In this document: piece by piece, positions 2,171 through 22,654 of the stretch
Numbering within the stretch: the stretch's first letter is position 1
How the letters are laid out: the number at the start of each line of letters is the position of its first letter
NCBI GenBank assembly: GCA_964534795.1
Contig: CAZHQK010000022.1
Location: 384 to 64,383, forward strand
DNA: 64,000 nucleotides
Source: an uncultured Acidobacteriota bacterium
Lineage (GTDB): Bacteria; Acidobacteriota; UBA6911
Reading direction: 5' to 3'
The notes under the pieces: model-generated
Told to the model about the DNA's origin: nothing
Seen by the model: the letters and a program-made list of their open reading frames with translations, nothing else
Databases searched by the model: none
Translations under genes and position numbers: made by a program

Positions 2171-2218
2171 TGGCCCGAAACGATCGCGGCCTGCTTTCCC
2201 CGCGTAGCGGAGGTGCTC

Positions 2219-2775
2219 ATGAATCCCGCCGGTTCCCGCCCAACCGTCCTTTATGCCTTTCTGTCGCTCGCTCTCACGGCCGCCGACTCGGCGGCGCAGG
2301 AGCCGGAAAGACTGAGCGCGCGCAATGCCAACTACACCATCGAGGTCCGGCTGGACCCGAAGCTCAAGACGCTGGAAGGCAGGCAGGTCGTCGAGTGGCG
2401 CAACGACACCGAAGTCCCCGCCCGCGAGCTCTGGTTCCATCTCTACTGGAATGCCTGGAAGAACGACCGCAGCACCTGGATGCGCGAGGCCGCCCTGCGC
2501 GGCCGGGGCCGGCGCGGCGAGGATATCCGCGACGAGGACTGGTCCTATTGCAGGATCCGATCGATCAAAGTGCTGCCCACGGGCGGGTTCACCGGCGCCG
2601 TGCTGACGGAATCCCTGCGCTTTGCCTCGCCCGACGACGGCAACCCGGACGACCGGACGGTGGCGGTGGTGCCCCTGCTGCAGCCCGTCGGGCCGCACGA
2701 AACCGTTCAGGTGGAAATAAGCTGGCAATCCAAGATCCCGCGCACGTTCTCGCGCACCGGCTTCCGCGGGAACCT
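2219..2775 (+). pseudogene. N-terminal fragment of secreted M1-family metallopeptidase, truncated by IS110
   Basis: Signal peptide, NANYTIEVRLDP, ELWFHLYWNAW, RTFSRTGFRGN, then reads into the IS left end; no HEXXH domain follows. Confidence 0.75.
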
Positions 2776-2782
2776 TATAGCT

Positions 2783-3010
2783 ATCCTGCAGCGCTTTTTG
2801 CTGCAGGATTTATAATCAGCCCCATTCGAGATTTTATGGAGACGCAAAAAAAATCGTGAGCACGCATCGTCCCGCTACGAATACGCGGGACCAACCGTTC
2901 GACGGTTTTGGGTAGACGCTCGAGCGGGACGATGCGCTTTGGTCCGACAACGAATACTCAGATGTCGTCCCTTCGAGGACTCTACTATAAGGCATTCGCA
3001 GGACCAAAGC
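2783..3010 (+). ncRNA. Putative IS110 bridge RNA (5' hairpin, target-binding loop, donor-binding loop); 5' end approximate
   Basis: Hairpin 2783-2809; 14-bp stem 2863-2876/2923-2936 enclosing target guides; 10-bp stem 2936-2945/3001-3010 enclosing CTCAGATGTC (= right end) and CTATAAG (= reverse complement of left end CTTATAG). Confidence 0.85.
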
Positions 3011-3046
3011 CAGCGTGTTCCCACAACCCCAAAGGAGCGCAATACC

Positions 3047-4309
3047 ATGCAAAACGAAAAAGTCCAATACGCCGCATGGATCGGTATCGATTGGGGAAGC
3101 GACCAACACGCCGTCTGCCTCCAGCCTGCCGAGCCTGCCCCCATGCACCATTACACCCTCGAACAAACCCCCGAGGCATTGCACGACTGGTTCGCCCGCG
3201 TCCGCGAACGCTTCGCCGGCCGCCCCGTGGCCGTGGCCATCGAGCAAAGCAAGGGAGCCGTCATCAATTTCCTCCTGGGCCTGGATTTCGTCCATATCTT
3301 CCGCATCCACCCCAAGAGCCTCAAAAACTACCGCGACGCCCTGCACCCCAGCGGCGCCAAGGACGATCCCACCGACGCCCAGTTGCTCGTCAGCTTTGCC
3401 CGGTGCCATCAGGACCGCATCCAGCGCTGGGTCCCGGAGCCGCCCCAGCAGCGCCTGCTGCTGCGTTTGGTCGAGCTGCGCCGCAAGACCGTCAACAAGC
3501 GCGTCCGTCTCACCAACGAACTTACCCAGCTGCTCAAAGAGCACTTTCCCCAGGCCCTCGCCTGGGCGGGACCGCTGCATAAGGTCATGGCCTGCGACTT
3601 CCTGTCCCGCTGGCCCACCCTGCAAAAGCTGCAGCGAAGCAAACCGCCCGTCGTGCGCAAGTTCTATCACGAGCACGGCTCCCGCAACCGGGCGTTGCTC
3701 CAGGAGCGCCTCGAGCAGATGCGCGCGGCTTCCCCGCTGACGACCGACCCGGCAGTCATCGCATCGTCGGTCCTGGCCGTGCGCAGCATCGTCGGCCAAC
3801 TGCGCAGCTTGATCGCCACCATCGAGGAGCTCGATCACGCCATCGAGGAAATCTGGCGCCGGCAACCCGACGCCGAGATCTTCACCAGCTTCCCCGGCGC
3901 CGGGCCCGCGCTGGCACCGCGCCTGCAGGCCGTCATGGGATCCGACCGCAACCGCTTCGATTCCTCCCAGCAGGTCGCCGAGTACTCGGGGATCGCCCCA
4001 GTCACCGAGCGCAGCGGCCACAAGCAATGGGTCCACCGGCGCCTGGCCTGCGCCCACTTCGTCAAACAGAGCTTCCACGAGTATGCCGCCCAGTCGCTCG
4101 GCCACTGCCCCTGGGCCTATGCCTATTACCGATACAAGCGCGCCGCCGGCATGCGCCATCACGCCGCCGTACGCGCGCTGGCCTACAAGTGGATCCGCAT
4201 CATCTTTCGCTGCTGGAAGGACCGCGTCCCCTATGACGAACGAAAGTACCTCGAGGCGCTCAACCGCCGAGCGCCCGCTTGGCTGAAAGCATCCGCAGCG
4301 GCAGCGTAG
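3047..4309 (+). CDS. IS110 family transposase/recombinase
   Basis: GIDWG, AIEQ and KDDPTDA (DEDD RuvC-like); FPGAGP and GIAPVTERSG (Tnp20 catalytic Ser); AAGGAG RBS. Confidence 0.95.
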   Translation: MQNEKVQYAAWIGIDWGSDQHAVCLQPAEPAPMHHYTLEQTPEALHDWFARVRERFAGRPVAVAIEQSKGAVINFLLGLDFVHIFRIHPKSLKNYRDALHPSGAKDDPTDAQLLVSFARCHQDRIQRWVPEPPQQRLLLRLVELRRKTVNKRVRLTNELTQLLKEHFPQALAWAGPLHKVMACDFLSRWPTLQKLQRSKPPVVRKFYHEHGSRNRALLQERLEQMRAASPLTTDPAVIASSVLAVRSIVGQLRSLIATIEELDHAIEEIWRRQPDAEIFTSFPGAGPALAPRLQAVMGSDRNRFDSSQQVAEYSGIAPVTERSGHKQWVHRRLACAHFVKQSFHEYAAQSLGHCPWAYAYYRYKRAAGMRHHAAVRALAYKWIRIIFRCWKDRVPYDERKYLEALNRRAPAWLKASAAAA

Positions 4310-4495
4310 GGTGAAACAAAATGCTTGATAGAATACCTCAGATGTCTGCCCGCGGGATCTGCCTGCCTTCGATCGGCTCACCTCCGGCTGCCGGCAGCTG
4401 AATCGCAGGTTGCCGTCCCGTCCCGACCGGCGGGCTTTTCCCCATCGGCCTCCCCGTTGCTCCCGCGGCCTTACCGAGCGGCGCAATCCGATCGC

Positions 4496-7228
4496 TCACT
4501 CGAGCGTGACCCCGACGGCGTTCCCGCAGTAGATTCCGTTGAACAGGAACTTGAACGTTCCGTGCGGATGGGCGCGGAAGGCGATGAGCGGCCCGAAAAG
4601 GAACAGCTTCCCCCGGCCCACGGTTGCCTCCACTACGGCAGCGGCTCCCTGGAGATTCTGCTGGCCCCAGGCCCAGCCGCTGCGCAGCGGGCGCGGGTCG
4701 TCGAACCAGGCTGCCCTGCGGACCGTGTCGGCGCCTCCGATGCGAAAGAGCGGATTGTTGTTGTAGAAGACGTCGAGGTTTTCCGGCAATCCGTATGCCA
4801 GCGGACTTGCCGTGTCGACACGCACCCGCAGGAGGGCCCCGGGAATGTAGAAGCTCTCCGCGGGAAGCGCCCTGCCGGTTTTTTCGTCCACCAGCGCGCT
4901 CGCGACCGGCAGGCCGAGCATGCGCGCGAGGGCCGTGGAGGAGCCGATCGCCAGGATGGTTCCGCCCTCGGCGAGAAAACGGCGCAGCTGCGGCACGGTC
5001 TTTTCCTCGGTGATCGCACCCAGCTTGTGCCGGTGCTCGGCCGGGATGCTTTCGGGGTCGGGCCCGGAGGGCTCGCGCGCCTGCCCGGCGCCGCGAATGA
5101 TTCCGTCCTCGAAAATGAGAACGTCGAACTTGCCCGCCAAGTCGCCGGCGTCGAGAGTCTGCGGATAGACGACCTCATAGGGGAAGCCGTATTGGCCGCA
5201 GATCCATTGAACCCAGCCCGAGGGAATGGAGCCGCCGTAGACATCGGCGATGCCCAGCCGCTGCCGCTTCAGGCGCAAGGCACGGCCGGCGGCCTTCCTT
5301 TCCAGGGCCGTGAAATCCAGCCCGACCTCCGCGGCCAGGCTGCGCACCATGCCGGCAGCCGCCGGGCCCGGAGGAATGTACATGGTGCCTGCAGGGAACG
5401 TGCGCCCCCCGGCTGCGACGGGCTCCTCCAGCCAGTAGACCTCCGCGCCCGCCCCGAGCAGGCGATTGACGGCGACGAAGGCGTCGTTGAGCGCGTGACT
5501 CAGCAGGTACCCCGCCTTGCCTTCTCCCGCGATTTTGCCCGCCGGCGGCCTAACCTGATCCTCTAGCTTTTCGAAAGGCCCGTCGAGGTTTTCGAGCACG
5601 CGGTCGAAGCGGATGCCCATCTGGTAGGCGAGCGTGTAGCCCGTCACGTCGTACGGCCGCACCGGAGGCCCGCCGGGATAGGCGAAATCGTCGGGGTAAT
5701 CCTGCGGCTCGAAGGCATCGACGATGTGCGGGCGGAAGGCCTGCGCCGTCTTGATCACGTAGGACCCGGCGGGGTAGGTCCTGGCGCCCGCCTGGAAGGC
5801 ACGCGCGGCGCGCAGCACGGTGCAGCCGTTCTTGATCAGGCTGTTGACGAACTTGGTCGCCGTCAGGAAGTCGGGCTGGTCGGCGGGCAGGATGTAGGCG
5901 CGCGCGTCGCGCGCCGTCGGGTCGCGCAGCAGATCGAAGTACTTGGGCGGGTAGCCCCCGCGCCCCCGCGGCACCTTGTCCCGGACGAGAGCTTCCTCGA
6001 CGGCGGCCGCCTTGCGCGCCGAGATCGTCCAGTGGTCGCGGCTCCCCCTCTCGATCGAATTCCTGCCCATGCGGTAGATGTTGTACAGGAAGCTTTCGCG
6101 GTGCTCGGCGGCGATGCTCAGGATGGCGCGGTTTGCGGTCAGCAGGTATTCGATCGCCTGGCGGAAATGCCAGGTCTGGGGCTGAACGGGGAAGGGGTTG
6201 TCGTTGCTCGCCACCAGGTTCCGGGGGACGAAGGAGATTTCGGTCGGGGTCGGGCTTCCGGTGATTTCCGACAGGATGCCGATCTGGTTGTGGAAGCAGG
6301 CCGTGCTGCGCACGCCGCCGTTCCACCAGTTCTGGTAGCTCGCGAAGGAGCGGCACACGGCGCCCGGCTTGCCCTCGGCCACGAAGCGCGAATGGATGGC
6401 CGCGCTCACCAGCTCCGTGCTCGGCGCCAGCAGCGGGTCGAGGTTGGGATTGGAGGGATCGCGCATGTGCCCGATGAAAAGAACCGTACCCGGAGGCCCG
6501 GACTGGTGCTGGTTGAACATGATCTGGGGAAACCACTCGCGATACAGGACGCGGGCGATGGCCTGCGATTCCGGCATGTTGCACAGCAGGGACTCGCGGT
6601 TGTTGTCGTGGCCGATGTATTTCTGATAGAGCACCGGCAGGTTTGCCAGCGAGCGGCGGGCTGGGTCCTTCTCGCGCATGTACCAGTCGGCGACCAGCTC
6701 GAGGCCGTCGGGATTGGAGAATGCGGCCAGGAAGATCACGTCGTCGAGTATGCGCAGCGTCTCGGCGTCGTTGCGCGCGGCCATCTGGTAGACCATCTCG
6801 GTGAGGGCCTGCGCGTTGGCCGTCTCGGTGGCGTGCAGTCCCGCGTCGATCCAGACGACGGCCTTGCCTTCGCCGGCCAGGGCGCGCGCCTGCTCGTCGC
6901 TCAGGTCTTCCGCGAGAGCCAGGCGCCTGGAGATTTCCTTGTATCGCTCGAGCTTGCGGTGATTCGCCGGGCTCGTGATCACGGCCATCAGCATCGGGCG
7001 GCCTTCGGAGGTCCGACCGTATTCCACCACGTCGATCCGGTCGGACTCGCGTGCCAGCTTGCGCCAGTAATTCGAAAGCCGGGTGTAATCGGCGAGGTGA
7101 TAATCATCGCCGATGTCGAATCCCAGCTCCGCCTTCGGTGCGGTGACGGCGCGGCTCTGCGCGCGCTCGCCCGCGGGGAAGAGCGCCGGCAGCGCCAGCG
7201 CCGCCAGCAAAAGCGACAATTTCCTCAT
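4496..7228 (-). CDS. Secreted M14 family zinc carboxypeptidase-like protein
   Basis: Signal peptide; GLHATE, NPDG, GHDNNR motifs; C-terminal GATase-like domain. Confidence 0.9.
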   Translation of the reverse strand: MRKLSLLLAALALPALFPAGERAQSRAVTAPKAELGFDIGDDYHLADYTRLSNYWRKLARESDRIDVVEYGRTSEGRPMLMAVITSPANHRKLERYKEISRRLALAEDLSDEQARALAGEGKAVVWIDAGLHATETANAQALTEMVYQMAARNDAETLRILDDVIFLAAFSNPDGLELVADWYMREKDPARRSLANLPVLYQKYIGHDNNRESLLCNMPESQAIARVLYREWFPQIMFNQHQSGPPGTVLFIGHMRDPSNPNLDPLLAPSTELVSAAIHSRFVAEGKPGAVCRSFASYQNWWNGGVRSTACFHNQIGILSEITGSPTPTEISFVPRNLVASNDNPFPVQPQTWHFRQAIEYLLTANRAILSIAAEHRESFLYNIYRMGRNSIERGSRDHWTISARKAAAVEEALVRDKVPRGRGGYPPKYFDLLRDPTARDARAYILPADQPDFLTATKFVNSLIKNGCTVLRAARAFQAGARTYPAGSYVIKTAQAFRPHIVDAFEPQDYPDDFAYPGGPPVRPYDVTGYTLAYQMGIRFDRVLENLDGPFEKLEDQVRPPAGKIAGEGKAGYLLSHALNDAFVAVNRLLGAGAEVYWLEEPVAAGGRTFPAGTMYIPPGPAAAGMVRSLAAEVGLDFTALERKAAGRALRLKRQRLGIADVYGGSIPSGWVQWICGQYGFPYEVVYPQTLDAGDLAGKFDVLIFEDGIIRGAGQAREPSGPDPESIPAEHRHKLGAITEEKTVPQLRRFLAEGGTILAIGSSTALARMLGLPVASALVDEKTGRALPAESFYIPGALLRVRVDTASPLAYGLPENLDVFYNNNPLFRIGGADTVRRAAWFDDPRPLRSGWAWGQQNLQGAAAVVEATVGRGKLFLFGPLIAFRAHPHGTFKFLFNGIYCGNAVGVTLE

Positions 7229-17256: not shown

Positions 17257-17817
17257 ATGAGCACTGCCATAGAAGCGCTGATGCATGAGCATCGGATAAT
17301 CGAAAAGGTCCTCGAGGCGCTGGAAAGGTTCTCCGATGCGGTCGCCAAAGGGGACAAGGTCGAGCGGGCCCGCATTCGCGAATTCGCAGATTTCTTCAGG
17401 AATTTCGCCGACCGGTGCCATCACGGCAAGGAAGAGGATCGGCTTTTTGCCGCCATGATCGAGCACGGCTTCGCCCGGGACCGGGGCCCGATCGCCGTCA
17501 TGCTGGAGGAACACCGCACAGGCCGCGAACATGTGGGCGCTCTGGCGCGCATCGGCGAAAGCGACGGGCCGCTGACCGAAGACGAGCGCCGCCGGCTGTG
17601 CAGCCATGCACTGGCGTACGCGGCGCTGCTCAAGGCCCATATCCAGAAGGAGGACAACATCCTCTACCCCATGGCCCTCGGCGCCCTGCCCGCACAGGTC
17701 ATGGTCCGCCTGAAGAAGGAATTCGATGAATTCGAAAAGCAGGTCATGGGCGAAGGCACCCACGAGCGCTACCACGAACTCGCCCGGCGGCTCGCCGATG
17801 CCTTCCAAGATGCCTGA
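17257..17817 (+). CDS. Hemerythrin domain protein
   Basis: LMHEH, CHHGKEE, MLEEH, HIQKEDNILYPMA. Confidence 0.92.
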   Translation: MSTAIEALMHEHRIIEKVLEALERFSDAVAKGDKVERARIREFADFFRNFADRCHHGKEEDRLFAAMIEHGFARDRGPIAVMLEEHRTGREHVGALARIGESDGPLTEDERRRLCSHALAYAALLKAHIQKEDNILYPMALGALPAQVMVRLKKEFDEFEKQVMGEGTHERYHELARRLADAFQDA

Positions 17818-22117: not shown

Positions 22118-22654
22118 TCAGGGCCGCGCAATGTACGTCGCGTGCTTTCCGGGAGGGTCTTCGACGGAATGGACTTCGAGGCCGCTCTTGCGCATGGTTT
22201 CGATCAGCGGGTCGGGGCGGAAGGAGGTCACCAGCAGCACGGTCCCGCCCGGGTCGAGGCGGGCGACGCACTCGCGCACCTTGCCGATCGGGTGAATACC
22301 GCGCTCGAGCATTTCGTCGCCGTCGATGCGGAAGCGGACTTCCTTTTGCCGGATGCTTTCGGGAATGCCGGCGGGTTCTCGCGCTTCCGGTTCGGGATCC
22401 TGGATTTCGCCCGCCGGCAGGCCGGCGGCTTCCCGCAGCCGGCGCACCAGGTCGCGCACCGGTATGCCTCCGATGCGCGCCGCCTGCTCCAGGGTGGCGA
22501 TCCGCGCGACCGTCCGGCGCAGCATGGGGTTCTTGAGCTTGGCGAAGGCGGGCGCCATGGCGACCAGGACGGCTTCCAGATCCGGGTATGCCTCGAGCAA
22601 GCTGCCCACTTTGGTTTCCGGAGTGATCGGGACTTTCATGGCGCGCACCTTCAT
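22118..22654 (-). CDS. DUF1858-domain protein
   Basis: ITPETKV..LL.AYP...F.KL.NP.LR.TVA..ATLEQAA; C-terminal F.P.PL SirA/DUF2249-like part; ATGA-coupled to upstream gene. Confidence 0.8.
   Translation of the reverse strand: MKVRAMKVPITPETKVGSLLEAYPDLEAVLVAMAPAFAKLKNPMLRRTVARIATLEQAARIGGIPVRDLVRRLREAAGLPAGEIQDPEPEAREPAGIPESIRQKEVRFRIDGDEMLERGIHPIGKVRECVARLDPGGTVLLVTSFRPDPLIETMRKSGLEVHSVEDPPGKHATYIARP

Follow-up and report, generated by a model that had tools for sequence, protein, structure and literature searches.

An IS110-group insertion sequence encoding a bridge recombinase and a predicted bispecific bridge RNA in an uncultured Acidobacteriota bacterium

Bridge recombinases form a new class of enzymes that rearrange DNA under the direction of a programmable RNA; to our knowledge few of their orthologues have been tested at the bench so far. 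Here we analyse a stretch of 64,000 nucleotides from an uncultured Acidobacteriota bacterium (GenBank assembly GCA_964534795.1, contig CAZHQK010000022.1, positions 384 to 64,383; referred to below as the window), which belongs to a draft genome of 223 contigs and holds, at positions 2774-4347, an IS110-group insertion sequence (IS) with a readable bridge RNA region. In IS621 from Escherichia coli, the 5' guides of the bridge RNA are described as reading in the sense of the left target and of the right end and the 3' guides as the complement of the right target and of the left end, each of the four guides taking in the core; bridge RNAs are predicted in the same source for thousands of IS110 elements (Durrant 2024, PMC11208160). 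Two further bases 3' of each right guide, the handshake guides, are reported to pair with positions 7 and 6 of the non-cognate DNA (Hiraizumi 2024, PMC11208158). A 2025 preprint (10.1101/2025.05.14.653916) presents a screen of 72 orthologues from which IS622 (ISCro4, Citrobacter rodentium) was chosen, and ISPpu10 of Pseudomonas putida is described as inserting into a conserved intergenic repeat with a GC-rich stem-loop 5' of the target (10.64898/2026.03.19.712850).

We put at roughly 90% the probability that 2774-4347 is an intact, probably recently active IS110-group insertion sequence that encodes a DEDD/serine bridge recombinase and a bispecific bridge RNA; transcription, RNA binding and catalysis by this pair we infer by analogy. 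A full-text literature search retrieved no paper on the element, the supplementary ortholog lists of large screens lying outside its scope, and we regard the element as a new member of the known bridge-RNA class, which leaves the known picture of the family unchanged.

The element and its recombinase

The main parts of the element are listed here by their positions in the window.

2774-4347, plus strand: complete IS110-group element, 1574 bp, with a CT core at each end
2774-2775 and 4346-4347, plus strand: CT core, the same dinucleotide as at all other junctions found
2774-3046, plus strand: left end, non-coding, 273 nt; its first bases, CT plus TATAG (2774-2780), are the right-donor half
2776-2781, plus strand: putative -10-like hexamer TATAGC, 17 nt past TTGATA in the circular form
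3047-4309, plus strand: recombinase gene, 420 aa, starting at ATG 3047, with GGAG upstream at 3034-3037
4310-4347, plus strand: right end, 38 nt; its last bases, TCAGATGT plus CT (4338-4347), are the left-donor half
4325-4330, plus strand: putative -35-like TTGATA inside the right end, read by eye
4327-4331 and 2781-2785: GATAG, inverted relative to CTATC, a 5-nt subterminal repeat recognised by eye

The element is placed in the IS110 rather than the IS1111 group because its left end is long and its right end short. Long terminal inverted repeats are absent from the ends, where only the 5-nt subterminal repeat was seen. Elements of the IS1111 group (seekRNA elements) share the protein family, with its DEDD and serine residues, but are described as carrying their long non-coding end on the right-hand side, with subterminal inverted repeats of greater length (Durrant 2024, PMC11208160), whereas the right end here measures 38 nt. 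All features of the IS110 group that can be tested in sequence were found in the element.

The recombinase gene is the sole long plus-strand open reading frame (ORF) within the element. Its product matches the Pfam families DEDD_Tnp_IS110 (PF01548, E 1.7e-22, residues 12-168) and Transposase_20 (PF02371, E 2e-13, residues 277-362). In an alignment of 21 sequences, whose relatives are 39-93% identical to it, D15, E66, D107, D110 and S323-G324 are invariant. The profile of this alignment matches IS621 (8wt6, E 1.2e-14) and ISCro4 (9t56, E 2.7e-14), and D15, E66, D107, D110 and S323 align with D11, E60, D102, D105 and S241 of IS621, S323-G324 falling on S241-G242. The profile was required for this match to solved structures: phmmer with the single sequence returned no PDB match at E up to 0.01, and a single-sequence PDB search at E up to 10 gave only one weak IS110-like chain (9mty, E 0.27). 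An earlier reading of this DNA from its letters and open reading frames (hereafter the preliminary description) had called the gene an IS110 recombinase, and both Pfam domains and the catalytic residues aligned with IS621 bear this out.

IS621 has in common with the element the DEDD and serine set, the CT core, a long left end encoding a target loop followed by a donor loop, 2-nt handshake guides, natural targets of the repetitive extragenic palindromic (REP) type, and a promoter split across the junction of right end and left end (RE-LE junction), which in our element is putative and was read by eye. The two proteins are however related only at the profile level, and ours has 420 aa against 326 residues in the domain description of IS621 and 328 in PDB chain 8wt6_A, with about 90 extra residues lying between the two catalytic domains. 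Furthermore, the left guides here pair with the first core base only, and an extra 5' RNA segment (2780-2863) precedes the target loop. IS622, the second solved relative matched by the profile, shares the architecture; it is reported to be 88% identical to IS621 and is equally distant from the 420-aa recombinase. As regards the promoter, orthologues hold TTGAC[GA]-17-TATAGT at a spacing equal to that of TTGATA-17-TATAGC across the RE-LE junction, and a promoter may be assembled across this junction when our element is circular.

Guides of the predicted bridge RNA and their covariation across orthologues

The predicted bridge RNA consists of the following parts, all within or next to the two loops of the left end.

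2780-2809, plus strand: 5' hairpin ATCCTGCAGC...GCTGCAGGAT of the minimum-free-energy structure, upstream of both loops
2864-3010, plus strand: canonical bridge RNA within the left end, target loop then donor loop
2864-2935, plus strand: target-binding module, outer stem 2864-2876 with 2923-2935
2878-2880 with 2920-2922, plus strand: closing CGA and TCG of the target module
[quoted passage not shown]
2894-2906, plus strand: inner hairpin of the target loop, ACCGT-TCG-ACGGT
2910-2915, plus strand: right target guide GGGTAG, complementary to CT plus ACCC
2916-2917, plus strand: target-loop handshake guide AC, for donor positions 7 and 6 (T and G of ...ATGT/CT; here and below a slash between bases marks a junction)
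2936-3010, plus strand: donor-binding module, outer stem 2936-2945 with 3001-3010
2951-2953 with 2996-2998, plus strand: closing CGA and TCG of the donor module
2958-2966, plus strand: left donor guide TCAGATGTC, equal to right end 4338-4346
2985-2991, plus strand: right donor guide CTATAAG, reverse complement of left end 2774-2780, CTTATAG
2992-2993, plus strand: donor-loop handshake guide GC, of which G pairs with target position 7 (C)

Judged by its sequence, the left end encodes a bispecific bridge RNA whose strand logic is identical to that of IS621. The folding energy of 2776-3048 is -103.9 kcal/mol, compared with -73.8 +/- 4.5 for 200 shuffled sequences (z -6.75, with no shuffle equal to it), and the fold consists of the 5' hairpin and two stem/internal-loop/hairpin modules. 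Both modules contain CGAATAC (2878-2884 and 2951-2957), and in both of them 4 nt separate a right guide ending in AG from TCG; the shared layout of two modules proposed in the preliminary description is thus confirmed by the fold. The donor guides correspond to the ends of the element itself. TCAGATGTC occurs in only two places on both strands of the 64-kb window (2958-2966 and 4338-4346, where 0.26 were expected), and CTTATAG only at 2774 on the plus and 2985 on the minus strand (0.76 expected), so that each motif is unique to its guide and its end. With regard to the handshake guides, A2916 and C2917 pair with T7 and G6 of the donor, respectively.

The other motifs of the preliminary description, including GCGGGACCA at 2885-2893 and GGGTAG at 2910-2915, are all where it had placed them, and it had correctly read a match of 7/9 between the former and the left flank and a single G-U pair between the latter and CTGCCC. 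Its anatomy of the element holds; it had overlooked the handshake guides and the fact that the target is part of a REP-like hairpin (see below).

We collected orthologues of the recombinase. A search of a protein database gave one relative that is 93% identical, followed by a large group at 63-70% (7537 matches among 8000 scored). Species-representative genomes yielded 24 loci with 35-78% identity in the best segment, the full-length matches being 39-45% identical; these loci are found in metagenome-assembled genomes labelled Acidobacteriota (Bryobacteraceae, Solibacteraceae, Sulfotelmatobacter), Planctomycetaceae, Gammaproteobacteria and others. Within the taxonomic order of the window, 12 of the 51 genomes (its own included) contain a relative at E up to 1e-60, with 69% identity at best. 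Relatives with 42-44% identity are also encoded on plasmids (906 records matched, from Klebsiella, E. coli, Yersinia, Cupriavidus and others), and the annotation of these plasmid-borne genes, where present, reads only 'IS110 family transposase'.

The regions upstream of the orthologues have a common bridge-RNA architecture, the fold being kept at protein identities of 39-69%, and 13 of them align at 73% mean column identity. Their consensus fold contains 40 base pairs, nearly half of which (19/40) show compensatory changes, among them 8 of 16 pairs in helix 1, in the target module, and 5 of 9 in helix 3, in the donor module. Of the cells in this fold, 94.4% are paired (82.2% in shuffles, 26-47% with slid partners), and the observed level of covariation was reached by none of 500 shuffles. 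Since a rigid regular expression for the donor loop caught only 3 of 15 new loci, we built a covariance model, which gave 46 matches at E up to 0.01 in 46 sources; 32 are full-length (71.9-161.9 bits) and the remaining 14 are weak antisense or partial matches (39 bits or less). The target loop is variable across orthologues, whereas the donor loop is conserved.

Guides were read by alignment column from the 32 full-length matches, and the ends of each element were placed from its donor guides alone. Rows without a determinable end were dropped and identical pairs of guide and flank were counted once, so that 18 comparisons remained on the left and 19 on the right. The left guide was measured by the longest run shared with the flank; a score in fixed register was dropped, as guide strings lie 1-2 nt apart between subgroups. 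The left guide shares an exact run of at least 7 nt with its own left flank in 15 of 18 cases but in only 1 of 290 mismatched pairings, and the right guide matches at least 3 contiguous bases past the core in 13 of 19 cases, compared with 8 of 332 mismatched pairings. In four loci (L010, L012, L039 and L040) the left guide matches the flank up to the core and the core itself is unmatched. The handshake guides vary in a similar manner: the first handshake base of the target loop is A if donor position 7 is T and U if it is A, with L017 as the sole exception. The alignment of homologous left ends, which the preliminary description had put forward as a check, reveals covariation of guide and flank. 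Different targets are plainly paired with different guides among the orthologue sequences, despite the kinship of the orthologues that is considered below.

Some of these loci have irregular structures. Genome G025 has two bridge-RNA matches about 1.3-1.5 kb apart (1314-1469 and 2776-2934 in L034; 91-249 and 1340-1496 in L045/L047), and at this locus one gene carries a stop and another is split; the paired matches may represent tandem or nested decayed elements. In L022 unrelated sequence stands in place of the 5' half of the target loop (about 1285-1345), and L018 contains the right-end segment twice, at 2811 and 3041, 230 nt apart.

Natural target and traces of activity

The left end of the element joins three other flanks in the draft genome, at the contig ends C71 and C78 and in an internal 103-nt fragment in C187, and the right end joins two, at the contig ends C156 and C168. 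All five junction pieces are 99-100% identical to the window copy, and the four at contig ends are 100% identical to it over 129-138 nt. All three left junctions end in ...GCGCGCGGGAC/CT; they read CGCGGGAC/CT, with which 2884-2892 (CGCGGGACC) forms a contiguous match of 9/9, the first core base included. The two right junctions read CT/ACCGG (C156) and CT/ACCTC (C168), the complement of 2910-2915 being CTACCC. Comparison with the flanks of other copies, also suggested in the preliminary description, thus gives a match with the target guides at 3/3 left and 2/2 right junctions.

Near-identical copies are present in the hot-spring metagenome runs X1, from which the DNA of the window may itself derive, and X2. 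The hot-spring run X3 and the sediment run X4 hold variants at further sites; these are about 98.7% identical and share the bridge RNA region. Contigs from X2 and X3 include left junctions with the same CGCGGGAC flank. The right junctions recovered are CT/ACCGGCACC in X2, which is of the CT/ACC type, and two of CT/GCCCGCG... in X4, so that the first base of the right target is A in C156, C168 and X2 and G in the window and in the two X4 junctions. The junctions of the other copies in the genome fit the target guides better than the window copy does, so the natural target is, by sequence, approximately CGCGGGAC-CT-RCC and forms the 3' arm of a GC-rich REP-like hairpin. The preferred target given in the preliminary description, GCGGGANC-CT-RCCC, was right about R, but its left half is really GCGGGAC, with no extra N.

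The hairpin belongs to a composite REP-like repeat, and a loose pattern for it has 90 matches in the genome on both strands. Unoccupied copies of the exact 12-mer GCGGGACCTACC are absent from the assembly; those of GCGGGACCT[AG]CC number 6. In these repeats two GC-rich hairpins are joined by a conserved spacer ...CTTATTGCTTCAAGTCACC..., a loose pattern for the companion hairpin matches 163 times on both strands, and several further repeated modules come after the repeats in this genome. The arrangement resembles that of ISPpu10 by its description, in that the left target here is itself the 3' arm of the GC-rich hairpin of a repeat family; it differs in that the window copy has no hairpin on its left.

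By analogy with IS621, the element would circularise by joining its right end to its left end at the shared CT, and this would set TTGATA 17 nt ahead of TATAGC and so create the promoter. The transcript of the left end would fold into the target loop (2864-2935) and the donor loop (2936-3010). The donor loop would then pair with the RE-LE junction, TCAGATGT-CT-TATAG, and the target loop with CGCGGGAC-CT-RCC, the hairpin arm that is present in dozens of copies, and the recombinase would swap strands at CT, aided by the 2-nt handshake guides.

A possible trace of excision is found in C13 (plus strand, about 17601-17630), where a canonical target, ...GCGCGCGGGAC/CT ... ACCGG, encloses only CAGATGTCT. 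These are the last 9 bp of the right end, lying between the left target plus CT and ACCGG. The footprint fits a deletion between the CT of the left junction and an inner CT at 4337-4338, 9 nt inside the right end, and suggests a past excision.

Fragments of the element were observed as well. The C187 fragment (22271-22372, minus strand) contains only left end 1-103, with a 1-nt deletion in an A-run, and is broken right after ...CCCGCT and joined to REP-associated DNA. A piece from the interior of the recombinase gene lies in C150 (173-263, minus strand), with an exact match of 88 nt (91 nt by BLAST) that starts at CT. In X1 the summed contig depth is 17.6 for the flanks, 91 for the body and 154-218 over 2792-3199, values which should not be interpreted as copy numbers; the left end, together with the opening 150 nt of the gene, reaches about double the summed depth of the remaining IS. 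Contigs of X1 leave the element at 2932 and 3199, neither of which is a junction in the assembly. This suggests that the X1 sample holds several copies plus extra truncated left ends, some of which would keep the whole bridge RNA.

A number of observations weigh against an intact and functional element with its bridge RNA. In the donor loop the second handshake base, C2993, is unpaired with target position 6 (A), and the second core base (T) is paired by neither left guide, where A2893 and G2967 stand opposite it. The left flank of the window copy, GCGGGAAC, has an extra A relative to the guide and needs a one-base bulge, or else matches at 4/7 ungapped. Among the orthologues, 3 of 18 left guides miss their flank (L034 with a run of 2, L044 and L020 with 6), as do 6 of 19 right guides (the window and L033, both with G-U at the first base, and L046, L008, L047 and L034); L046 is a pseudogene with 7 stops, and the assignment of the ends is doubtful in L008, L034 and L047. 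The orthologues are moreover kin, so that the permutation figures overstate their independence. TATAGC lacks the usual final T of a -10 hexamer, a promoter and terminator scan of the linear sequence 2650-4500 found 0 promoter-like and 0 terminator-like sites, an Rfam scan of 2500-4600 at E up to 1 matched no family to the left end, and no circle junction was seen in the metagenome contigs, which drop rare forms.

Some of these points would fit an element that is canonical in sequence, IS110 gene and bridge RNA included, but is now inactive, its copies being relics or assembly repeats. The imperfect -10 hexamer, the missing circle junction and the truncated pieces in C187 and C150 could all be read in this way, but the open ORF with all catalytic residues, the four junction fragments at contig ends that agree fully with the window copy, the 98.7% variants that occupy additional sites in other samples and share the bridge RNA region, and the footprint in C13 make it improbable. 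The structure of the left end could also be a mere leader or terminal structure of the transposase mRNA, and its matches to ends and flanks coincidental or due to terminal repeats. Rfam has no matching family, as would then be expected, and RNAalifold also pairs parts of the donor guides with one another (helices 4 and 5), in pairs that never vary. This explanation has very little to recommend it in view of the covariation of guides and flanks across orthologues with different targets, the covariation of the handshake bases, the variable target loop beside a conserved donor loop, and the strand logic shared with IS621. Therefore, we conclude that the insertion sequence with its recombinase and bridge RNA is probably intact and recently active, as far as sequence can tell. 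As a member of a branch remote from IS621 and IS622 it is easily read: the guides, the handshake bases, the natural target and the likely junction promoter can all be assigned. It could be a candidate for ortholog screening and adds one more IS110 element homing to REP-like hairpins.

The flanks of the window copy

Two features flank the element in the window.

2213-2773, plus strand: left flank, opening 187 codons of a roughly 700-codon M1-like peptidase gene that breaks off precisely where the IS begins
4348-4495, plus strand: right flank, REP-like DNA (GCCCGCGGGATCTGCC...), which precedes a convergent gene at 4496-7228

The ORF at 2213-2773 has no Pfam match on its own. In 6 of the 50 other genomes of the order there are open frames of 675-800 aa whose N-terminus corresponds to it, and one of these frames, that of L050 with 703 aa, continues ...RTGFRGNYYFIAQWFPK..., in which an HExxH-type metallopeptidase motif can be recognised by eye. 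A tblastn search of the window's genome with this frame found a match for residues 40-226 only, plus a distant paralogue in C19 (22.6% identity), so that the 3' part of the gene is missing from the assembly; a Pfam M1 search of the genome found two other genes, in C19 and C212. Contigs from X3 and X4 cover 2602/2611-2773 with 4 differences and then read TTCTTTTTTGTGGCGCAATGGTTCCCCAAA, which in frame gives FFFVAQWFPK, so that the peptidase gene is intact there. At the position of the IS end the related contigs read ...GGGAAC/TTCTTTTTTGTGG..., and the protein carries on as in the orthologue. Modules like the right flank occur in C121, C175 and C25.

Since the left flank lies inside a gene which other samples show intact, the two flanks were not originally neighbours, and on this sequence comparison the window copy marks a deletion junction. 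It follows that a target motif read from the window copy alone is misleading.

The deletion could have been made by the recombinase and its bridge RNA, an origin to which we give odds a little short of even. A resident copy in a downstream REP site might have recombined with a pseudo-target in the peptidase gene that matches the left half only, or a second, off-target copy might have been inserted in the gene and the two copies recombined, with loss of the intervening DNA. Consistent with such an origin, homology to the gene ends exactly at the IS end (between 2773 and 2774), related contigs and the orthologue carry the protein on past the breakpoint, and the breakpoint flank GCGGGAAC resembles the left target GCGGGAC, while the right flank CT/GCCC, with its one G-U pair to the right target guide, is a right target used twice more in X4. 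In the relative G018 about 5 kb separates the two flanking genes, which are convergent, and substrates matching half of the IS621 bridge RNA are reported to recombine (10.64898/2026.08.31.748434). On the other hand, the core position in the intact gene reads TT instead of CT, the bases to the right of it (CTTTT) are unmatched by the right guide, and the left match requires a one-base bulge. Alternatively, a deletion at microhomology between CGCGGGAAC in the gene and CGCGGGAC in the REP-like DNA may have come first, followed by a normal IS insertion at the resulting target-like site. The guide-like similarity of 8-9 nt is also a microhomology between the deletion endpoints, and the reconstructed empty site, GCGGGAAC-CT-GCCC, is a near-cognate target; yet two independent events would be needed at one point, and no IS-free junction was found in the assembly or in the metagenome contigs examined. 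We consider this sequence of events possible, with odds clearly below even.

The window copy may thus be a natural example of an off-target or half-match rearrangement. A more specific account is that a natural deletion guided by the bridge RNA at the pseudo-target GCGGGAAC removed about 480 codons plus downstream DNA, and that together with the C13 footprint it represents half-match and alternative-core recombination; this we regard as rather unlikely. If true, the deletion and the footprint would provide evidence from the field that IS110 elements reshape genomes in nature through half-match and alternative-core recombination.

A contig from X4 joins unrelated DNA (...CAGAAGTGAA) to the sequence from 2766 onward, and this loose end may belong to a related element whose left flank is also like GCGGGAAC, by a match that is short and was made with 10% mismatch allowed; another contig of the same run leaves the element at 2799.

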